Of a stretch of DNA of 64,000 bases, positions 1,772 to 58,806 are shown piece by piece; the first letter of the stretch is position 1; the number at the start of each line of letters is the position of its first letter. The stretch lies in sequence record MT446414.1. The stretch is one strand, 5' to 3'. The notes beneath the pieces were generated by a model. The model searched no databases and was not told the DNA's origin. It was given only the letters and a program-made list of their open reading frames with translations. The DNA comes from Escherichia virus TH43. The position numbers and the translations under genes are program-made.

Positions 1772-2047
1772 ATGAGTAAAGTAATTAAGTTTTACAGTAA
1801 TTCATGTGCTCCGTGTGCAGCTATGGCTCCTGTGTTTAAGAAGGTTGTGGCTGACTACAGTGTAGAAGTTGAAGAAGTAAATATCTCTGAAGGTGATGGT
1901 CGAGAGCGAGCCATTGAATACGGTGTTCGCAGTATCCCAGCCTTTGTCGTCCCTGATAAGAATAGTGGTGCTCATTATAGTTTATCAGGTATGCAAACTG
2001 AATCTAATCTCCGTGCATTTTTAGACACGGCTCTGAAAGGTATTTAA
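1772..2047 (+). CDS. thioredoxin-fold redox protein (CxxC)
   Basis: N-terminal KFYSNSCAPCAAMAPVF motif; RBS AAGGAA. Confidence 0.6.
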   Translation: MSKVIKFYSNSCAPCAAMAPVFKKVVADYSVEVEEVNISEGDGRERAIEYGVRSIPAFVVPDKNSGAHYSLSGMQTESNLRAFLDTALKGI

Positions 2048-2048
2048 T

Positions 2049-2264
2049 ATGGAAAAGAAACCTTGGATTACTTTTTGGGTAGTTAAGTGGTTTAATTTTG
2101 ATAGCACAATCCCTAGTTTCTCCTCATATACAACACGGAGAGAGGCTCGCCGCTTTAAGCGAGCTTTAAAAATTGCTAACACTGGCGCTTCTAAGATTAC
2201 AATTCAGAAAGGGATTGAAACAGAAAGTGGAAGCAACATGATTTATAAAAAGATTCATTATTAA
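2049..2264 (+). CDS. hypothetical protein
   Basis: ORF track. Confidence 0.4.
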   Translation: MEKKPWITFWVVKWFNFDSTIPSFSSYTTRREARRFKRALKIANTGASKITIQKGIETESGSNMIYKKIHY

Positions 2265-2278
2265 GGAAGAGTTCAAGG

Positions 2279-2929
2279 ATGAATGAACAATTACAAGCAA
2301 CACTAATCGAAGCAATGGGTTCTGATAAATCTGTTGTTAATGCAGCTCGAGTTTCCTTTGGGGTTACTCGTGAAGGAGAGTTAAATGAACGAGATGAACG
2401 CCTTATCAAATTCCTTGCCAGAGAAAAGCATGTCACACCATTCCGTCATCCGACAATTAGCTTCCGATGCAAAGCGCCAATCGCAATTGCGAGACAGTTG
2501 GGCAAGCATCAAGTTGGATTCTCGTGGAACGAAATGTCCCGGCGGTATAAAGATGGAGCAGTTGAACTCTTCATCCCTAAAGAGATTTTTGAAAGACCTT
2601 CGGACCTCCATGCAGGTGCAGGGAATCTCCTCACCACAGGAGCACAAAACTCTGCACTAGTTCTGATTAATCGAGCATATGAAACAGCTCTTGAGTCGTA
2701 CGATGAATTGATTAAGTTCATTGCTCCAGAACAAGCTCGATTCGTATTACCTCAGGGTATGATCACTGAGTGGGTATGGACTGGTTCTCTATATGGTTGG
2801 TCAGAGTTGTGTCGTCAGAGATTGTCAGACCATGCTCAGTACGAAGTACGAGTGTTCGCATCAACAATTGATGAAGAGCTTCGTAAAATATACCCAATCT
2901 CTTGGGATGCATTACGTGAAGCCCACTAA
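2279..2929 (+). CDS. thyX: flavin-dependent thymidylate synthase ThyX-like protein
   Basis: AARVSF...TPFRH...FRCKAPIAIARQ...SWNEMSRRY resembles the ThyX core; canonical RHR appears as KHQ. Confidence 0.6.
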   Translation: MNEQLQATLIEAMGSDKSVVNAARVSFGVTREGELNERDERLIKFLAREKHVTPFRHPTISFRCKAPIAIARQLGKHQVGFSWNEMSRRYKDGAVELFIPKEIFERPSDLHAGAGNLLTTGAQNSALVLINRAYETALESYDELIKFIAPEQARFVLPQGMITEWVWTGSLYGWSELCRQRLSDHAQYEVRVFASTIDEELRKIYPISWDALREAH

Positions 2930-3101
2930 AGCATGTAGCTTCTGTCGAAAGCAGAAGCTTCTTATCAATTTCAAACTGAATGAGGAAACAGGTTTGGGTC
3001 ATGCTTTTTGTCATGATTGCAGGCACTACCTCGAACAGAAGCAATACATAAACTGGTTGCATTACTACAACCCTAACATCTATAATCACAAGGTTATCTA
3101 A
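2906..3101 (+). CDS. small zinc-ribbon protein (CxxC...CxxC); overlaps thyX 3' end; start uncertain
   Basis: ORF track 2793..3101; Cys pairs CSFC and CHDC. Confidence 0.35.
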
Positions 3102-3581
3102 ATGAAAGCTATTTTTGAAGGAAGGGAGTATGATGTTCCTGATTGGGTTAAATACATAGCCCGTGACTATGATAATCTGGTTTGGGCATATGGAGACGTA
3201 AGACCTGTGTTTAATGAAAACACTGGTAGTTGGTCTAACATGTCAAAATTGCCAGGATTTATTCGGGCACTTGGCTCTTCTAGTCGTCCTGTAGGTTTCG
3301 CTGCTGACTCACTTGTTGAGGTTGGTGTTGAAAAGGAAATAGACAAGCCAGAAACGATTTGGGTTTTATCTTCGAGTACCCCAATCAAAGGGAGTCGTGG
3401 GATTTCCTTCTATGTTGAACCGGTCGCTTACTTCAAAAATAAGCCAACCATCAACGCTCTGATGTTAAAGAACATTCCTTATTCACAAGTTGCTACTCTG
3501 TTAGATAATGGTACAGTGCTTGTTGAGAATAATGGGACAAATCAAATCTTTTATGATTTAGAAGAAAGGGTTTTGGAATGA
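3102..3581 (+). CDS. hypothetical protein
   Basis: ORF track. Confidence 0.5.
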   Translation: MKAIFEGREYDVPDWVKYIARDYDNLVWAYGDVRPVFNENTGSWSNMSKLPGFIRALGSSSRPVGFAADSLVEVGVEKEIDKPETIWVLSSSTPIKGSRGISFYVEPVAYFKNKPTINALMLKNIPYSQVATLLDNGTVLVENNGTNQIFYDLEERVLE

Positions 3582-3787
3582 GAATCTACAAATTAAGTCT
3601 ATGCTTTAGTGAATGGACTCACGACACAGAAGTAAAAGCAACTTATTACAAAGACCGTCCTACTCGTGGTCAGCTGATGCTAGATGGTATGGGTAGTGAT
3701 GCTTGTGATGTTGTTCTTCAATACGGAGCTGTTCAGGACTCTTCTCCCGGATATGTTTGGAAACTTGGGATTATTGAGGTTAAGTAA
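3578..3787 (+). CDS. hypothetical protein
   Basis: ORF track; ATGA overlap with previous gene. Confidence 0.45.
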   Translation: MRIYKLSLCFSEWTHDTEVKATYYKDRPTRGQLMLDGMGSDACDVVLQYGAVQDSSPGYVWKLGIIEVK

Positions 3788-4000
3788 ATGAAAGGTTTAG
3801 TATTAGGAAAACATCGATTTACTTTCCGTATCTCAGACAGGAATCCATACCCCACCAAGATTGAACCTTATGAGATTATCTCTGAAGTGTTTATCTGGCC
3901 TTGGCAAAGCATCTATGATGTTGCCCTTAAATCCAAGAAGAAGCTGATACCTGTTGGTATTTGGGCTGATGTTGATTTAATTAAAATCGAAAAGGTTTAA
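3788..4000 (+). CDS. hypothetical protein
   Basis: ORF track. Confidence 0.45.
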   Translation: MKGLVLGKHRFTFRISDRNPYPTKIEPYEIISEVFIWPWQSIYDVALKSKKKLIPVGIWADVDLIKIEKV

Positions 4001-4001
4001 A

Positions 4002-4322
4002 ATGATTAATGATAATACATTTAGGACTGGTAACGGAAACGAGATTAGTCCTGCTGAAGTGATTAAACGACACAGAACGCAGATGCTTATCCACTCCTAT
4101 TTGTATTATTGGTTGGATGACCCAATCTGGTCTGATGATAAATGGCAACAAGTGGCTGATGACTTAACCACTTTGCAAGAGATGTATCCTGAGCCTATTG
4201 GATTCTTTGATTCAGAGTTCAATGGGTGGAATGGCTCTACTGGTATGCATCTCCCTCATGACGAGCGTATTGCTTGTATGGCTACTGAAGTATATCGTTT
4301 ACATAAGGACAAATCTATCTGA
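4002..4322 (+). CDS. hypothetical protein with NAD-ligase domain Ia-like motif
   Basis: HSYLYYWLDDPIWSDDKW...LQEMYPE resembles the LigA N-terminal Ia domain (recalled). Confidence 0.45.
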   Translation: MINDNTFRTGNGNEISPAEVIKRHRTQMLIHSYLYYWLDDPIWSDDKWQQVADDLTTLQEMYPEPIGFFDSEFNGWNGSTGMHLPHDERIACMATEVYRLHKDKSI

Positions 4323-4500
4323 AATGTTTTAAATGTGAATCCACTCTTCTCCATCTGGACTCGAAAGTAATACGAGAGCTTGCTAAAGGCTCTCCGACGA
4401 AAGGGAAGAATAAGAAATTTGTCGAAGTTAAGGTTATAGGTACTCATTGTTCAGAGTGTAAATCCTGTAGCTACACGTATGAAGAACTTGGAGGTAGAAA

Positions 4501-44175: not shown

Positions 44176-45717
44176 TTAGTAGCTTTGATTCCATCTGTTA
44201 ATATTTTCTTGATAAAGCGACGAGCTACCATAGCTAGCGTCATGCTTAGACCGACCTCTGTGTGTAACAGAACAAGCTGAATATCGCATTGCGTCCATAA
44301 GGTCATCATGTTCTTTAATAATCTTACCAACTTTTCGATGGTAACGTGCTTTCTCTTCAAAGAGCTTAGCACATGCGGTAGTATTAAAGACTTTGAATCG
44401 ACCTGACATCATACGCTCACGAATATCAGTAATTCCTGGCTCCACAAAGAAGTTCTTCTTACCATCCATTCCGATCTTGTTATGGAAGGTATCATTTTGT
44501 ACGTTTACTCCTGCATTTTTATAGAATTGTGCTACAGAAGCACCACTTCCCTTCTCAATGTTATCAGCATCGTGAGGAAGAATGACTGGAATCCACTGAC
44601 CACGACCATTAATAGCTGGTGCATGATACACTGGAGTAAAGCCACTTTCTTTATAGCAGTCATAAATGTAGATTGTATCGGTGTTAGCATCATAAGCTGA
44701 CCATACAGCTGCCGTCGGGTGATCAATACCAATATCAATGGCACAAACACGTTTCCACGTATCAGGAATTTCAAACGGGTCACACTTAATTGAATCATCA
44801 GATACATCATAAATCAAACCTGAACCCAACAGAGGCATACCTTTAGAGCGCATCTCTAGCTGCCATGCCGGAATACCTTCTGTCATATCCTTTATGTCTT
44901 GGTCAGAGATGTGACCACCTAGGTCCACATGAGCATCCCACCAAGAAGCATTTTGGAAATATAGAGAACCTGTGTTCTCGTCCCCTTCACCTTTCATAAA
45001 CTTGTCCACCAGCTCTGTTAATCCGTTCTCTGGTGTAGCTGTAATCGTAACTAAACCTTTAGTAGTAAGTGTACGTGTTACGCACTGAGAGAAGATTGCC
45101 ATACTTTCATAAGGATCTTCTTCGTCCAGCCAAATGTAATCCACTGTAGCACCCATTAATGTGTGTTCACCCTGTTGGGTAGAACGAAACTCTAACGTAC
45201 TCAGCCCATCAAATTCGCCTCTAGCATTTTGGTGCTTGATTTGTACGATCTGTAATTTGTTTCCATCTCGTTCTATCGTGTCAATGACGATAGCGTCACG
45301 AGGAATAACACCCGTCCCTAATAAGTTTGTATCCTTTCCGATAGGTGTTCCAAATAATTCCTTTTGCAATACCTTTCTTGTAGAGTCCCCTGTAATCCCT
45401 ACTGCCCAAGCCAATATGGGTCGATTAAATCTATATCCTGTCCACCAAGTTGGGTAGCGACCTGTGACATGACAAGCAAACTCGTATGCCTCGCTGTAAG
45501 ATTTACCAACACGGTTAGCTGCACACAGGAATCTAAAGCGATGCTTCAGTCCCGCTGCATAAAAGTCTTTCTGAAACTGGTATGCTTTAAAAGAAAGAAT
45601 CCTATTATACTTTCTCCATTGATCTCTATCCTTCAGCATTTCAAGCAGAGCCTTCTTCTCCTCTACCGATAGCTTGTCTCCAGTTAGTGCTTCATATATT
45701 TCTTTATCTAATGACAT
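44176..45717 (-). CDS. terminase large subunit
   Basis: Walker A CAANRVGKS, Walker B IWLDEE, C-terminal nuclease-like region. Confidence 0.8.
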   Translation of the reverse strand: MSLDKEIYEALTGDKLSVEEKKALLEMLKDRDQWRKYNRILSFKAYQFQKDFYAAGLKHRFRFLCAANRVGKSYSEAYEFACHVTGRYPTWWTGYRFNRPILAWAVGITGDSTRKVLQKELFGTPIGKDTNLLGTGVIPRDAIVIDTIERDGNKLQIVQIKHQNARGEFDGLSTLEFRSTQQGEHTLMGATVDYIWLDEEDPYESMAIFSQCVTRTLTTKGLVTITATPENGLTELVDKFMKGEGDENTGSLYFQNASWWDAHVDLGGHISDQDIKDMTEGIPAWQLEMRSKGMPLLGSGLIYDVSDDSIKCDPFEIPDTWKRVCAIDIGIDHPTAAVWSAYDANTDTIYIYDCYKESGFTPVYHAPAINGRGQWIPVILPHDADNIEKGSGASVAQFYKNAGVNVQNDTFHNKIGMDGKKNFFVEPGITDIRERMMSGRFKVFNTTACAKLFEEKARYHRKVGKIIKEHDDLMDAMRYSACSVTHRGRSKHDASYGSSSLYQENINRWNQSY

Positions 45718-48504: not shown

Positions 48505-48532
48505 TTGACATGTTTTTCCTTTAATATATAGT
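48505..48532 (+). promoter_or_regulatory. sigma70-type promoter (TTGACA-16-TATAGT)
   Basis: consensus -35 and near-consensus -10; ~40 nt upstream of gene at 48571. Confidence 0.6.
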
Positions 48533-48570
48533 TGCGACTGTAGTTCACATCAACCGAAAGGATTAATGAA

Positions 48571-49434
48571 ATGTCAAAGTTAGCAATTAAATACTTGAAT
48601 CAGGCAAATGATGTACTTTCTCTGTTAGGTCTTTCCGTTGGTGTGCCTTCTCAATGGATGGATAACCAGCAAGCTCGTACCAGCTTTAAAAACTCTGTCA
48701 TTCTGGCTTGTCTTATCATAGATTCCGCTGCGAACGCCTTACAGTGTGAAGATGAGCAGTCAATGAAAGAGAATGGTTTTACAGATATGCAAGATGCTAT
48801 CAACTGTTACATTCAGGCTAATTTAGATAGTTGGACTCAGAATGATTGGCCTGAATCTTGCCGCGATGTTAACGCAGTATTATCCCGCTTGTCTGCTATG
48901 GTTGAAGCTGTTCAGAACAAGAAGAAGAAAGATAGCAAGCCTTCTATTGCAAGTAAGATTATGAAGTCTGTCAACCTTGCAAGTTATGCACTGGTTGCAG
49001 CTATCGGTGTCAGTGCTATCGCTCCCAATGTGCAGGCAAAAGACTCTCTTTCTACTGGTCTGCAATCCTTTGTTAGCACGTTTAAGAATGCTCCTGATAT
49101 GGCTTGCCGTGACGTTGGCAGTGATGGTAATGATTCATTCTGGAAGGTGCATTTTAACTCTGTAACCGTAAAAGATGTGCGTGTCACTCTTACCCCGTTA
49201 GGTGAGAAATCAGGCATTCAGTCGGTTATTAATTTAAAGCGTGCTGACAGTGATCATGATATGGTTACTTATTCTCTATATCAGAAGATTGAGAAAGAGA
49301 AATTACAGTTTGTAACTAATCTCGTTAGTTATGGTGATGTGAGTGAAACTGTACTCGCTACCACTGCTTACAATGACGGTGTAGCAGTTTATACAACCTT
49401 TATTAACTTTGCTAATTGCGAGGCTATCCAGTGA
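48571..49434 (+). CDS. hypothetical membrane protein (one TM helix)
   Basis: RBS AAAGGA; TM segment LASYALVAAIGVSAIAP. Confidence 0.5.
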   Translation: MSKLAIKYLNQANDVLSLLGLSVGVPSQWMDNQQARTSFKNSVILACLIIDSAANALQCEDEQSMKENGFTDMQDAINCYIQANLDSWTQNDWPESCRDVNAVLSRLSAMVEAVQNKKKKDSKPSIASKIMKSVNLASYALVAAIGVSAIAPNVQAKDSLSTGLQSFVSTFKNAPDMACRDVGSDGNDSFWKVHFNSVTVKDVRVTLTPLGEKSGIQSVINLKRADSDHDMVTYSLYQKIEKEKLQFVTNLVSYGDVSETVLATTAYNDGVAVYTTFINFANCEAIQ

Positions 49435-49679
49435 ACGAATCATTTGCAACCGTAATAAACTCTCATATGTGCATTCAGCATGGTGATTTGGTTATCAGCG
49501 GTAAATATGGGCTTGTACTGATCCCTATCCGTGCGCTAGTGTCTTTATCTTCATTGCGTGCACGCATGACCATCGCTCAGTTGTCCGGCCTTGATCCGAT
49601 GGATGCTAACGAATATCGTGATTTGCTGGTTAAATCTGGTCTATCGCTGGAAGAATTACTAACCATTGAGGATAATTAA
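49431..49679 (+). CDS. hypothetical protein (GTG start; track ORF begins 49416)
   Basis: ORF track. Confidence 0.4.
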   Translation: MNESFATVINSHMCIQHGDLVISGKYGLVLIPIRALVSLSSLRARMTIAQLSGLDPMDANEYRDLLVKSGLSLEELLTIEDN

Positions 49680-49681
49680 CG

Positions 49682-49954
49682 ATGGAAACTATTGCCATTA
49701 TTGAAACACATAATTACGGCGTAGGCATTACACTGAATTATGATGCTATGGCTGACGTTGGTAATTTGTTATTGATCACCCCTAGCGATATGAAAATTAT
49801 TGCCTTCACTGGTATTATGCTTATTGGTGCGGATTATCTTGAGCTAGCCCAATTCTTTGCCCGTAATGGCCTACTATTGGACGTTGACGAGGTGCAAGCC
49901 ATTTGTGAAACCTTTGATAACTATCTAGATAAGGTAGTAAGTGGTGAGCAATGA
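49682..49954 (+). CDS. small acidic protein
   Basis: ORF track. Confidence 0.45.
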   Translation: METIAIIETHNYGVGITLNYDAMADVGNLLLITPSDMKIIAFTGIMLIGADYLELAQFFARNGLLLDVDEVQAICETFDNYLDKVVSGEQ

Positions 49955-50053
49955 TTCATAAATATTTCTTGCATTGCCTGATTGCTTTCTGTATCATGTT
50001 ATTTACCTATGACATGATTTCTTATGTTGCACGTTCCTTGTAAGGGTTGGATT

Positions 50054-50380
50054 ATGAAAATTAAATTAGCTGTATGTGCTGCCTTGTTCGCTGTTTCTTC
50101 CGTGTCACATGCTGCCGTATTCAATGAGGCTAGCCTTGATGGTCTGCAATGCACCTATCTAATGGAAAATTACGACACTGGCAAAAAGTCTAGCAAGGTA
50201 GTATTGATTGACCTGAATGATTATGATCATCGTGTCGTTGATGGCAAGCATGCAATGCTAGTCAATGAAACTACAGGCAAGCAAATTACTATTGATCACA
50301 TGATGCGGTCTAGCATGACGTTGTTCGATGAGTCGATGAACGAAATAGCATCAGGTAACGGCACTTGCACCAATCCGTAA
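50054..50380 (+). CDS. secreted protein (signal peptide)
   Basis: MKIKLAVCAALFAVSSVSHA signal peptide; RBS AAGGG. Confidence 0.5.
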   Translation: MKIKLAVCAALFAVSSVSHAAVFNEASLDGLQCTYLMENYDTGKKSSKVVLIDLNDYDHRVVDGKHAMLVNETTGKQITIDHMMRSSMTLFDESMNEIASGNGTCTNP

Positions 50381-50400
50381 CCAACCCGTAAGACTCTCTA

Positions 50401-50426
50401 AGCGCCCTTTTGAGGCGCTTTTTTCA
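50401..50426 (+). terminator. rho-independent terminator
   Basis: AGCGCC...GGCGCT hairpin plus TTTTTT. Confidence 0.55.
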
Positions 50427-50586
50427 TTTCTAAGGTGATTGCACATCTTGCCCCTGTTTATCTCGTTAGAACGCCTCCTACATGCCTAGCTTTTGATTAT
50501 AATGCTTGTTTTCTTCCTCCCTTGATGTTATTCGTGCGCGTGCTCATCTATACCTAAAAGAAAGTGAAATTATTTTAGAAAAAGGT

Positions 50587-50615
50587 ATTGCTTTCTTTGC
50601 TTGATAGATTTATAT
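50587..50615 (+). promoter_or_regulatory. sigma70-like promoter (TTGCTT-17-TATATT), weaker
   Basis: sequence match only. Confidence 0.3.
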
Positions 50616-50675
50616 TTGAATCTCAGGTTTAGTTATGCAGTCGGTAGCAAGCCTGATAGGCTAGACTTTTAGCCT

Positions 50676-50688
50676 TGCTCTTTAAAAA
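50676..50688 (+). promoter_or_regulatory. boxA-like antitermination element (TGCTCTTTAAAAA)
   Basis: matches rrn/lambda boxA consensus; preceded by short hairpin. Confidence 0.5.
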
Positions 50689-50742
50689 CTCGATTAGTGT
50701 ATCTTGATAAACTCCCAACCATGCCATAATGAGGATTTATCA

Positions 50743-50943
50743 ATGAACATCTATACCTTCTCAAGCAAAGACACACAAATCACTTGCACTAGCATTAACG
50801 TTACTAACATGATTATGAGAATAGTCGGTAGTACATTACAGCAAGCGAAAGAAATGGTAGCCGATGCCGATAAAGGTAAAGCTATCGCGGTCTTATCGCT
50901 GGTAAGTACAGATAAAGATTTAACCTTTAAACGTATGAACTAG
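50743..50943 (+). CDS. small hypothetical protein
   Basis: ORF track 50704..50943; ATG 50743 after RBS TGAGGA. Confidence 0.45.
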   Translation: MNIYTFSSKDTQITCTSINVTNMIMRIVGSTLQQAKEMVADADKGKAIAVLSLVSTDKDLTFKRMN

Positions 50944-51010
50944 GGTAAGGTAAGGTTAGCGGCCTTAATGGTCGCTAGTTTATCAAGATGCATTAATCGA
51001 AAAATAGTTG

Positions 51011-51038
51011 TTGACACGTCGAATCGTTATGATAAGAT
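51011..51038 (+). promoter_or_regulatory. sigma70 promoter (TTGACA-16-TAAGAT)
   Basis: consensus -35; -10 TAAGAT. Confidence 0.55.
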
Positions 51039-51084
51039 GTGCACATGGTCAGCGATGACATAAAACATCCGGCACTAAGTGCCC

Positions 51085-51097
51085 CGCTCTTTAATAA
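51085..51097 (+). promoter_or_regulatory. boxA-like antitermination element (CGCTCTTTAATAA)
   Basis: preceded by hairpin GGCACTAAGTGCC; followed by TTTATC as in rrn leaders. Confidence 0.55.
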
Positions 51098-51172
51098 TTT
51101 ATCGTCTTGCCCTTTCGCAAAGATTCACGCGAGATAAGGGAAGAGAACAAAAAGAAGACGATAAAAAAAGAG

Positions 51173-51200
51173 TTGACAAGGTGAAACGTTCTGATAGAAT
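51173..51200 (+). promoter_or_regulatory. sigma70 promoter (TTGACA-16-TAGAAT) with A-rich UP-like element
   Basis: consensus -35, strong -10, A-tract upstream. Confidence 0.65.
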
Positions 51201-51223
51201 GTTCACTAAGCAGTAAGAAACAC

Positions 51224-51236
51224 CGCTCTTTAAAAA
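51224..51236 (+). promoter_or_regulatory. boxA-like antitermination element (CGCTCTTTAAAAA)
   Basis: ~25 nt downstream of promoter at 51173. Confidence 0.5.
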
Positions 51237-51340
51237 TATGAATCAGAAAGTTAAGCGCAACCGCTTACAATCTTGTTAATCCAATACGTGATTAACTGGT
51301 CATTCGAAAGAATAGACGAGAAAAAGATTTAAAAAAGTGG

Positions 51341-51369
51341 TTGACACGCTAAACAGGATGATTCATAAT
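51341..51369 (+). promoter_or_regulatory. sigma70 promoter (TTGACA-17-CATAAT) with A-rich UP-like element
   Basis: consensus -35, good -10, A-tract upstream. Confidence 0.65.
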
Positions 51370-51458
51370 GAGCACTCACTAAGCAAATCACCGCGAAGTG
51401 AACAGCGTAACAACGGCTAACAGTTGCATAGTGTGAGAAAGCACACTGATAGATTTAC

Positions 51459-51472
51459 CGCTCTTTAACAAT
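51459..51472 (+). promoter_or_regulatory. boxA-like antitermination element (CGCTCTTTAACAATTTA)
   Basis: near-identical to E. coli rrn leader boxA; preceded by hairpin GTGTGAGAAAGCACAC. Confidence 0.6.
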
Positions 51473-52285
51473 TTAAACATTCTCCTATATCGGTTGAATA
51501 TGCTAGATGATAATAACCATCGGATAGCATACCAGATAAAACGGTGTAAGATTCTCTAAGTTATCAGAGTAAACAATCTCACAATCCCTTACTGGAAACG
51601 TCACCACTGATAAGCAGATTCATCGAGTGCACGCAAAGACTTAAGCTAATCGCCCACGGTTAAGGGTAGCGGCGGTCATCGCTAACAAGGCGCTACGGTG
51701 AAAGAAGTTAATCAGGGTAGACAAGCCCGACTAATTAACGCTCAATTGAGAGCGGCGGGGAGTGGTTAAAAAGTGGCAAATTGCTATTTAACAATAAGGT
51801 TTAGTGTGAACGTTTACGAAGTGAATGATTTGAGGCCACTATTGATGGCGTACATAATCAGTTTATGTAGTAAACCTGCTGAAAGATATAAAACGTCAAT
51901 GTATCAGGCGGCTAATGACTCTTTCGCAATAACCTCCCGTAGTGGGCGATGGTTAGCGATTGAGAGTTGGTATAAAAGGATAGGCGGGAGCGAAAGCAAA
52001 GTAAACGATATTACCGACGGTTACAATAAAGTAACTAATTAGAGTCGGGCACACTGCCTTATTGTGATGATTGATCATCGCTATCAGGTCGGCTTCGTTT
52101 ATAGCGACTAATTAAAGATACCAGATGAAACATCACGGATAATGGGGCGGCTAGGTTAACTCCTGATAAGACCGCCCCACTTACCTATAACTACTTAATA
52201 ACGAGCGGTTATAGTTAAGTCATTGTGACTTGAATAGCTCATAGAGAGCGGCGCATAGAGCGTTTCAATTAAAAGGTAAATTATC

Positions 52286-53188
52286 ATGGCTAAATCTTTC
52301 AATCTGGTTAACGAATCTGGCTTTAACGCACTGGCTAACAACATTCGTAGCAACAACGCAGCGATTAAGCAAGATGTTTCTAACTTCCTGTTAGGTCACT
52401 TACAGCACTTCCGTGCTAACGGTAAGAAGTTAGATGTATTGCAGGCGGCAGTAGACTTCCTGTTAACCGAGCGTTACCGTGATTTAGATGTGATTGCGGT
52501 TGCAATCTCTTTCCTCACTCCTATCAAGTACAACAGCGACGGGGCGAACGGTAAAAAGAAATGGATTAATCTGGAAGGTGAAGCGAAAGCGAAAGAAGAC
52601 GCTAAGCCGGAACAAGTTAAGGCCAAAATGGAACAAAACCGTGCCCGCTGGTCTAACTCCTTTGAACGCTTTGCGAAAGGTGAAGACGTGCAGGTTGATA
52701 ATCCAGCTTTCTATAAAGGTTGCAATGACAACGTGCCAGTTGCCAACCAAATCAACCAGAAAGTTGGCGAAAACTTCAGCCAGGATATTTACGCCTTAAC
52801 TGATCGTTTGGCTGCAATCCGTATTGAAGCGGCCTTACTGGCTGATGAGCGCAACGGTGCATCTTCTGATAACACTATCGCATTGAGTGAAGAGGTAGGC
52901 AAAGTTAAGAAAACTTTTGATTCACTCCTTAAGAAAGTAACCGCATCAACTGTATCTATCAGCGATGACTATCTGATCAATGCCTCAGCCAAAGAGCTTG
53001 AATCTCTGGATTCATACGCTGATGAAATGGAGAAAGCGATCAACGAAATGACTGAAAAATTGTCTAACCTTCGCGGTCGTATCTCAAATGCTTCAACTGT
53101 CAAAGCGAACGAGAAGGCGGCGGCAGATGAGGAAGAAGTATTGCGCAAAGCTGCCGCAATCATGGCAGCACGCCAACAAGCTGCATAA
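52286..53188 (+). CDS. hypothetical protein (300 aa), first gene downstream of the tandem early promoters
   Basis: ORF track; terminator downstream. Confidence 0.55.
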   Translation: MAKSFNLVNESGFNALANNIRSNNAAIKQDVSNFLLGHLQHFRANGKKLDVLQAAVDFLLTERYRDLDVIAVAISFLTPIKYNSDGANGKKKWINLEGEAKAKEDAKPEQVKAKMEQNRARWSNSFERFAKGEDVQVDNPAFYKGCNDNVPVANQINQKVGENFSQDIYALTDRLAAIRIEAALLADERNGASSDNTIALSEEVGKVKKTFDSLLKKVTASTVSISDDYLINASAKELESLDSYADEMEKAINEMTEKLSNLRGRISNASTVKANEKAAADEEEVLRKAAAIMAARQQAA

Positions 53189-53208
53189 CTTACAATAAAG
53201 AACATATA

Positions 53209-53242
53209 AGGCGCTATTCGAAAGGGTAGCGCCTTTTCTTTT
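53209..53242 (+). terminator. rho-independent terminator
   Basis: GGCGCTA-TTCGAAAGGG-TAGCGCC hairpin plus T-tract. Confidence 0.6.
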
Positions 53243-58317: not shown

Positions 58318-58740
58318 TTGAAGATAGAGTTAGAATACCCCTTCGTTAATGACTGGCGATTGGGCTACTTAAGAACAAGCAGAGACGGTAGGAAGCGTGT
58401 TGATTTGTATAATACCGACACGGAGAGGACAACCATTTCTTACGCAAGATATTTAATGTCTTGTCACATAGGCAGGTACCTAACTGAAGACGAGGAGGTT
58501 GATCATATTGACAGAAATAAAACTAATGATGACATATCTAATCTTCAGATACTTTCCATAGAAAATCACAGAAAGAAGTCAACATTAGAAGCAACTACTG
58601 GAAGAACAATGATTTCAGTTGTTTGCTCTTATTGTGGAAGATCTTTTGAAAAAGAAAAGCGAAATGTTAAATATGCAAATTCTTTTTGTAACAGATCATG
58701 TGCAGGTAAGTATAACGGTTTCAAATCTATCGGGGCGTAG
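58318..58740 (+). CDS. HNH homing-endonuclease-like protein
   Basis: EEVDHIDRNKTNDDISNLQILSIENHRKK HNH motif. Confidence 0.55.
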   Translation: MKIELEYPFVNDWRLGYLRTSRDGRKRVDLYNTDTERTTISYARYLMSCHIGRYLTEDEEVDHIDRNKTNDDISNLQILSIENHRKKSTLEATTGRTMISVVCSYCGRSFEKEKRNVKYANSFCNRSCAGKYNGFKSIGA

Positions 58741-58806
58741 TCTAGTGGAACAGGCAGCGAGCTTCTAACTCGCCTTACGAGGGTTCGAATCCTTCCGTCC
58801 CGACCA
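58731..58806 (+). tRNA. tRNA-Arg (anticodon TCT)
   Basis: hand-folded 76 nt cloverleaf: 7 bp acceptor, D-loop with GG, anticodon loop CTTCTAA, T-loop TTCGAAT, encoded CCA. Confidence 0.8.

Follow-up and report, generated by a model that had tools for sequence, protein, structure and literature searches.

BoxA elements known to function in Escherichia coli share the gamma-proteobacterial consensus GYTCTTTAANA (PMC5725501), and antitermination through BoxA serves long untranslated transcripts, namely those of the ribosomal RNA (rrn) operons and of clustered regularly interspaced short palindromic repeat (CRISPR) arrays (PMC7665894). Elements of the rrn type (rrnG/rrnB) bind the NusB:NusE dimer at 5-8 nM, compared with 80-90 nM for the lambda nut boxA (PMC2800207). 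Among lytic phages, T7 carries a functional single boxA, mutations in which show a genetic phenotype (Savalia 2010, as cited in PMC3709561). Here we describe four boxA copies in the early region of Escherichia virus TH43 (MT446414.1), a podophage of the Gordonclarkvirinae (phiEco32-like), of which a stretch of 64,000 nucleotides (nt), hereafter the window, was analysed. We consider it probable that they are N-independent BoxA elements of the rrn/T7 type which recruit NusB-NusE to the host RNA polymerase on an untranslated early leader. SU10 and phiEco32 were already known to have three sigma70 promoters in this spacer (PMC4281155); the multi-copy boxA arrangement and the leader RNA of ~815 nt that follows it appear to be new. 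The searchable literature, group-specific papers included and the primary phiEco32 papers (PMC3275717, PMC2587145) not covered, yielded no report connecting boxA with phiEco32 or Kuravirus.

A search of both strands of the 64 kb with YGCTCTTTAAHAA gave exactly four matches, all on the plus strand and at the positions proposed by an earlier, sequence-only reading of this DNA (50676, 51085, 51224 and 51459). Shuffled sequences predict 0.03 matches, and none of 100 shuffles reached four. The 9-mer core GCTCTTTAA does not occur in the window beyond these copies. All four fit GYTCTTTAANA, which has six matches in the window against 0.66 expected, four of the six being those in the early leader. The promoters and boxA copies, together with the leader, are arranged as follows (figures out of twelve are promoter matches).

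50588..50616, plus strand: promoter P0, TTGCTT-17-TATATT, 8/12, the weakest of the four, with an A/T-rich tract upstream
50676..50688, plus strand: boxA1, TGCTCTTTAAAAA, spacer-type, 14 contiguous bases identical to the rrnB 16S-23S spacer boxA
51011..51038, plus strand: promoter P1, TTGACA-16-TAAGAT with extended -10 TG, 10/12
51085..51097, plus strand: boxA2, CGCTCTTTAATAA, leader-type, GCTCTTTAAnAATTTATC agreeing with the rrnB leader at 17/18 bases
51173..51200, plus strand: promoter P2, TTGACA-16-TAGAAT with extended -10 TG and an A-tract upstream, 11/12
51224..51236, plus strand: boxA3, CGCTCTTTAAAAA, spacer-type, 19/24 bases shared with the rrnB spacer boxA region
51341..51369, plus strand: promoter P3, TTGACA-17-CATAAT with an A-rich UP-like tract, 11/12, conserved in all 20 phages compared
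51459..51471, plus strand: boxA4, CGCTCTTTAACAA(TTTA), leader-type, 16 contiguous bases identical to the rrnB leader boxA
51472..52285, plus strand: untranslated, highly structured leader RNA of ~815 nt, free of open reading frames (ORFs), conserved and covarying

The two remaining matches to the consensus, both of the GTT variant, lie at 44310-44320 (plus strand), within the minus-strand ORF 44176-45717, and at 3463-3473 (minus strand), antisense to the plus-strand ORF 3102-3581; with 0.66 expected per window they are probably due to chance.

Comparison with fetched host sequences showed that the phage copies resemble both flavours of rrn boxA. The rrnB leader reads GCCGCTgagaaaaagcgaAGCGGC-cac-TGCTCTTTAACAATTTATCA-...TGTGTGGG, in the order boxB, boxA, boxC, and in the rrnB 16S-23S spacer TGCTCTTTAAAAATCTGGATCA comes after a hairpin. 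The near identity of boxA4 to an rrn leader boxA, which had been claimed from the sequence, is borne out by 16 contiguous identical bases between CGCTCTTTAACAATTTA and the rrnB leader TGCTCTTTAACAATTTATCA. Identity to the host thus extends well past the 8-12-nt boxA core, and the first base of boxA1 is T, not C. It had also been claimed that all copies match the lambda nut core CGCTCTTA. This holds for 7/8 bases, but the match is not exact: nutR and nutL have two T and the phage copies three, and we class the latter as rrn type on that account. The scan of IMG/VR with the 16-mer GCTCTTTAACAATTTA returned at least 120 stretches, nearly all of them on unrelated contigs among the matches listed, and is uninformative because many chance matches are expected for a 16-mer in so large a collection.

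Conservation in related phages had been set beforehand as one of the tests that could overturn this reading. The boxA region has matches in about 97 Gordonclarkvirinae podophages of Escherichia and Shigella, the closest of which are Bas88 (95%) and SU7 (92%), and we compared the homologous region of 19 annotated relatives (Kuravirus, Suseptimavirus, Nieuwekanaalvirus and unclassified Bas phages) with the window, 20 phages altogether. Each of the 19 relatives carries three to five exact copies of GCTCTTTAA, and over the 20 phages 84 copies are on the plus strand and none on the minus strand. When the sites were anchored on this seed, the flanks held 0.1-0.9 bits of information versus 2 bits in the motif; outside the seed, information rises at four positions, namely -1 (C), +10 and +11 (both A) and +12 (T). 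G never occurs at position +9, which is A, C or T, corresponds to the 'N' of the consensus and is the only variable position inside the motif. Accordingly, boxA4 is invariant in 20/20 phages save at this 'N' (C or T). A search allowing up to two mismatches disclosed essentially no decayed copies, the exceptions being a single AACAG variant, in KBNP1711, and within the leader an invariant GCTATTTAACAA, to which we return below.

The motif is also found well outside this group. Looking for related loci by means of the first gene downstream yielded nothing beyond close relatives already known, but a protein search with this gene disclosed uncultured metagenomic relatives at 47-68% identity, and four distant contigs (L150, L152, L154 and L155) carry two or three exact boxA each, 11 copies in total and all on the plus strand. 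These copies lie 3' of TTGACA-type promoters and of small, unrelated hairpins, at positions about 1790-3500 and ~900 nt upstream of the gene. The region is gene-free for up to ~3 kb in L150, L152 and L155, and has two small called ORFs in L154. No further boxA was found on either strand of the four 7.9-kb loci. The 84 copies of the 20 phages and the 11 copies of the four distant relatives are thus invariant while their flanks have diverged, as is to be expected of purifying selection acting on the motif as a unit.

The sequence-only reading placed a promoter ahead of each copy, and we found near-consensus predicted sigma70 promoters in three cases (P1-P3) and the weaker P0 in the fourth. In SU7, PAS59 and UKE3, the P0 orthologues read TTGCAA-16-TATATT (9/12). 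The distance from the predicted transcription start to the motif is ~54, 41, 18 and 84 nt for boxA1 to boxA4, respectively. Among the relatives, most copies stand 8-90 nt 3' of near-consensus sigma70 promoters with A-rich upstream tracts, and for a few no promoter of their own can be recognised. Between three and five promoter/boxA modules are present, the number varying by inter-module duplication and recombination (Bas88 1118-2149; 172-1, NJ01, LAMP and Bas93), the extra copy of Bas88 being provided with a module-4-like spacer, GATAGACTTAAC.

Small hairpins had been noticed before three of the copies, and they are present at 50658-50675, 51071-51083 and 51430-51447, that is, 5' of boxA1, boxA2 and boxA4, which reproduces the hairpin-then-boxA order of rrn operons. 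The upstream sequence of boxA3 forms no convincing hairpin (-1.7 kcal/mol). The predicted hairpins of the four transcripts are the following.

~50623-50656 and 50658-50675, plus strand: two 5' hairpins of the P0 transcript, directly abutting boxA1, minimum free energy -20.9 kcal/mol
51048-51059 and 51071-51083, plus strand: P1 leader hairpins, GTCA-GCGA-TGAC (GNRA loop) and GGCAC-TAA-GTGCC
51252..51267, plus strand: hairpin TAAGCG-CAAC-CGCTTA (TTAAGC-n6-GCTTAA), 16 nt 3' of boxA3
51376..51447, plus strand: three P3 leader hairpins, the last of which (AGTGTG-AGAAAG-CACACT, 51430-51447) ends 12 nt before boxA4

The fold of the P0 transcript is retained in SU7, PAS59 and UKE3 despite a different sequence of the first stem. 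The GCGA-loop stem after P1 covaries among relatives (GGTCA/TGACC, ATTCA/TGAAT, AGTCA/TGACT and CTTCA/TGAAG), and so does the hairpin before boxA4, which is boxB-like in position (AGTGTG/CACACT, AGCGTG/CACGCT, AACGTG/CACGTT, GAAGTG/CACTTC and GAGGTG/CACCTC). In the latter, 99.5% of the cells are paired and 20 are double-change cells, versus 5.4 in shuffles (none of 500 reached this number) and with only 18-34% paired in slid controls. Since the hairpins adjoining boxA covary, a function at the RNA level is indicated. The hairpin that follows boxA3 has a conserved stem and a variable loop in the relatives, and in Bas93 a C-G pair replaces a U-A pair once. No copy other than boxA3 has a hairpin 3' and hence a lambda-like order, but the loop of this hairpin is unlike boxB. 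Taken together, consensus, host identity, strand, promoters, conservation and hairpin order all agree with what rrn-type boxA on early transcripts predicts at the sequence level.

These features suggest how the unit might work. The four motifs would be true BoxA RNA elements of the rrn type. Transcription by the host sigma70 RNA polymerase would start at the four tandem early promoters, three of them near-consensus with A-rich upstream tracts, and the nascent RNA would expose an unpaired GCUCUUUAAnAA ~18-85 nt from each start, with a small hairpin coming first for three of the four copies. GCUCUUUAAnAA would be the high-affinity site of the host NusB-NusE(S10) dimer which, with NusA, NusG and SuhB, would tether the RNA to the polymerase and yield a fast, Rho-resistant 'rrn-type' elongation complex for which no phage N protein should be needed. 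The polymerase thus modified would traverse the untranslated inter-promoter RNA and the ~815-nt structured leader before arriving at the first early gene (52286). BoxA has been shown to act in this way at CRISPR arrays (PMC7665894), and the genetics of the T7 boxA imply the same (Savalia 2010, as cited in PMC3709561). Binding of the Nus factors, the effect on Rho or on elongation rate and the reason for a copy at each promoter are the parts that we infer.

The likeness to the E. coli rrn antiterminators goes beyond the boxA bases (16 contiguous in the leader type; 14 contiguous or 19/24 in the spacer type). In both systems boxA is preceded by a hairpin, the strong promoters stand in tandem with A-rich tracts upstream of them, and a long structured untranslated RNA comes next, with a long-range helix starting just 3' of boxA. 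The phage unit differs in that it ends in a protein-coding gene, lacks a boxC-like GU-rich element and has up to five boxA within ~800 nt, one per promoter. Its hairpins are short and unrelated in sequence to the rrn boxB, and sequence similarity to the host is confined to boxA.

T7, likewise a lytic podophage of E. coli, starts early transcription at tandem strong sigma70 promoters (T7 A1-A3), involves no N protein and carries an rrn-type boxA (ACGCTCTTTAACAATCTGG) in the untranslated leader ahead of its first early gene. Both phages later shut off the host RNA polymerase, T7 by means of Gp2 and phiEco32 by means of gp79. T7 differs from the present locus in having a single boxA after all promoters and a leader of ~100 nt; here each promoter is followed by a boxA of its own, and the leader is structured and ~815 nt long. 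The families of the two phages are not related to each other, and for the phiEco32 group the function of boxA is a prediction.

With lambda nutL and nutR the phage copies share a boxA-like core that begins CGCTCTT, the location on an early transcript and, presumably, the use of host Nus factors. They do not qualify as lambda-type nut sites. The lambda boxA CGCTCTTA, with its two T, has the lower NusB:NusE affinity cited above (PMC2800207), and the lambda boxB, which binds N, lies 3' of boxA (GCCCTGAAAAAGGGC in nutR and GCCCTGAAGAAGGGC in nutL), while the phage hairpins are 5'. Uses of GYTCTTTAANA outside rRNA include, besides the present one, the BoxA of CRISPR arrays (in Salmonella and others) and that of the suhB 5' untranslated region, which are single-copy cellular loci, unlike the phage copies. 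The former shields a long untranslated transcript from Rho (PMC7665894). The latter is near the 5' end of its transcript (PMC5725501) and represses translation, promoting Rho termination; the outcome of BoxA is therefore dependent on context. To our knowledge, no N-like factor is known for the phiEco32-like unit, no search for an N-like protein having been made.

The leader RNA that follows boxA4 was previously unannotated and may be a more interesting object than boxA itself. The distance from boxA4 to the start of the first gene is 825-865 nt in 20/20 phages, and the mean column identity of the leader (87%) equals that of the coding region behind it. Over the 20 phages there is no conserved plus-strand ORF and no 3-base periodicity; a 41-amino acid (aa) minus-strand ORF was discarded as it is absent from five phages. 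RNAalifold predicted 255 pairs in 43 helices, with 98.8% of the cells paired. Compensatory double changes were present at 75 pairs, versus 31±3 after column shuffling (none of 500 shuffles reached this number) and 7-13 in slid controls. The plus strand folds at -231 kcal/mol with a covariation term of 21.7, compared with -155 and 9.8 for the minus strand, and the many G-U/A-U alternations are compatible solely with the sense RNA. The first long-range helix begins directly 3' of boxA4. A permissive Rfam scan of 50300-52400 gave only two matches, at E ~1, and therefore no known RNA family. The complete genomes of E. coli were all searched by blastn with 50560-52285 and gave no match, so the leader is not host-derived. 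A leader profile used with nhmmer found it wholly or partly in 4/4 of the distant metagenomic relatives.

Some ideas about this RNA were tried and abandoned. RNAalifold also proposed that the boxA4 region pairs over a long range with the ribosome-binding site of the first gene, but this pairing has no covariation and is broken in the window and in Bas88. A role as CsrA sponge was rejected on account of its six GGA, against 14 expected. The argument that a leader rich in rut sites needs protection is weak, since G (23%) exceeds C (18%) and windows rich in C are few. Inside the leader there is also a boxA-like sequence:

51783..51794, plus strand: pseudo-boxA GCTATTTAACAA, C4 to A (boxA16 type), predicted to be base-paired

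It belongs to a stretch of ~45 nt with little or no variation among the 20 phages. The C38A change drops NusB:NusE affinity to the micromolar range (PMC2800207), and in lambda (boxA16) as well as in suhB (C4A) BoxA loses its function through the C-to-A change. We read this sequence as part of the putative leader structure and not as a Nus site.

Several observations weigh against Nus recruitment for antitermination. Neither Nus binding nor genetic results for these phages were found in the literature searched, which did not cover the primary phiEco32 papers. The predicted accessibility of the boxA copies exceeds the average but is unexceptional: thermodynamic prediction alone gives co-transcriptional unpaired probabilities of 0.65-0.8, versus 0.44-0.76 for the background. 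No boxC-like GU-rich element (UGUGUGGG) was found within 30 nt 3' of any copy. The multiplicity of boxA is unexplained because a single one 3' of all promoters would suffice, as it does in T7. Complexes of the rrn type are said to act mainly on Rho-dependent terminators, and the strong intrinsic terminator after the first gene may limit the reach of any antitermination. The leader, being G-rich and heavily paired, is probably a poor Rho substrate by itself, and rRNA has been reported to be intrinsically Rho-resistant, with Nus factors at rrn mainly aiding folding (PMC5725501). Finally, the distant relative Salmonella phage 7-11, which is from a different family, lacks boxA in its right-end early region, and the nhmmer search with the leader profile gave no match in it. 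Its authors postulate an antitermination strategy that 'remains to be defined' (PMC8948821).

The poor quality of the leader as Rho bait, together with the folding role of Nus factors at rrn, makes a serious variant of our reading, with which it is compatible: the same BoxA-Nus recruitment would serve mainly co-transcriptional RNA folding, the 5' end being tethered and the ~815-nt leader chaperoned as proposed for 16S rRNA, with the block to Rho secondary. The 43 covarying helices, the long-range ones among them including the first right after boxA4, and the co-occurrence of leader and boxA copies over a wide clade speak for it. The copies that follow P0-P2, far upstream of the structured domain, are left unexplained, and the leader has no known function. 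We regard this as a possible main purpose, though one we would put forward tentatively. With more reserve still, the whole unit of 50.59-52.29 kb, with its strong promoters in tandem, its hairpin-boxA modules in both host flavours and its structured RNA of ~815 nt, might be viewed as a phage-built mimic of an rRNA operon, in which the rrn antitermination complex chaperones a functional long non-coding phage RNA and not a mere 5' untranslated region. Host take-over, anti-defence or a platform for processing or regulation are possible roles of such an RNA.

Other explanations rank lower than these. The sequence-only reading had offered, as its second option, that the phage titrates the antitermination complex: abundant early transcripts with three to five BoxA sites would absorb NusB, S10 and SuhB, starve the host rrn operons and so shut down ribosome synthesis. 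Multiple copies per transcript from near-consensus promoters, mimicry of both host flavours down to the flanking bases and the nanomolar affinity of rrn-type sites (PMC2800207) would suit a decoy. Yet a lytic phage requires ribosomes during infection, a decoy has no need of promoter-proximal, sense-strand sites ahead of the phage's own genes, and T7 has one copy only, so we think titration unlikely.

We give slightly less credit to BoxA-Nus acting as translational repressor, in the style of suhB or of lambda N autoregulation, on the small ORF (50743), the first gene (52286) or both. BoxA represses suhB translation across at least 100 nt of RNA, and lambda nutL acts across a structured leader of ~200 nt (PMC5725501); boxA1 ends 55 nt from the start of the small ORF. 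However, for three of the four copies the nearest start codon is hundreds of nucleotides away, the 826 nt to the first gene are far beyond any tested case, and the small ORF is absent from most relatives, where the boxA copies are still found.

It is very improbable that the motif works at the DNA level, either as the site of a phage or host DNA-binding protein or as a -10-like element causing sigma70-dependent promoter-proximal pausing. It does contain -10-like hexamers (TAAAAT, AATAAT), and some copies are ~10-20 nt from the predicted transcription start. Such an element leaves the invariant GCTC half unexplained, the distance from the predicted start varies over ~8-90 nt, and neither the strict single-strand occurrence (84 to 0), the match of 16-19 bases to a host RNA element nor the covariation of the adjoining hairpins fits a DNA site. 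That the repeats are functionless relics of tandem duplication of the promoter modules is hardly credible: module number does vary (three to five) with clear duplications, e.g. in 172-1, NJ01 and Bas88, but the 13-mer is invariant among essentially unrelated inter-module flanks, decayed copies are essentially absent, relatives with ~50% protein identity retain exact copies, and a random conserved 11-mer would equal the host boxA by chance with a probability of ~4^-11.

If the recruitment of NusB-NusE to the early leader is confirmed, phiEco32-like phages would be a second lytic lineage which, independently of T7, copies the host rRNA antitermination signal without a phage N or Q, and in a form more elaborate than that of T7, with a boxA for each promoter and both leader and spacer flavours. 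The copies would offer a mutable handle on NusB/S10/SuhB dependence of early transcription in coliphages widely used as therapeutic candidates, and this dependence could be a determinant of host range or resistance. The locus would also be a compact natural system to separate the two roles proposed for the Nus complex, blocking of Rho and chaperoning the folding of a long structured RNA. It draws attention, moreover, to a conserved, unannotated structured RNA of ~815 nt in ~100 sequenced phages.

As to the surroundings, the late genes of the window are on the minus strand up to ~47 kb and the early genes on the plus strand from ~48.5 kb. The boxA stretch is left unannotated in relatives; in phiEco32, it is a gap of ~1.9 kb separating genes 125 and 124. 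The other elements of the unit are these.

50400..50420, plus strand: intrinsic terminator, a GC-rich 7-bp stem followed by TTTTTCATTTC, annotated at the same place in SU7
50743..50943, plus strand: small ORF of 66 aa, homologue of SU7_114, 55 nt 3' of boxA1
52286..53188, plus strand: first gene of the boxA unit, encoding 300 aa, homologue of phi32_gp124 (PHROG 13018), function unknown
53208..53235, plus strand: strong intrinsic terminator directly 3' of the first gene, a 12-bp stem followed by a T-run, annotated in SU7

The early operon upstream (genes 48571-50380) is closed by the first terminator, so that the boxA unit is transcribed separately; it is made up of the terminator at 50400, the four promoter/boxA modules, the structured leader, the single 300-aa gene and the terminator at 53208. 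The 66-aa ORF is the sole ORF of the promoter/boxA zone that is annotated in relatives, and PHROG and Pfam searches assigned it to no family; the same searches of the neighbouring proteins left all of them without known function. An internal contrast is provided by the near-consensus sigma70 promoter at 48505-48571 (plus strand; TTGACA-16-TATAGT, 11/12), which heads the first early operon and, although equally strong as the promoters of the boxA unit, feeds a translated gene directly and without boxA. Salmonella phage 7-11 has ~1 kb without genes (3365-4417, minus strand) before gp151, a protein whose N-terminus resembles that of the gp124 homologue. The early region of the window also has a transfer RNA gene, tRNA-Arg(TCT), at 58731-58806 (plus strand).

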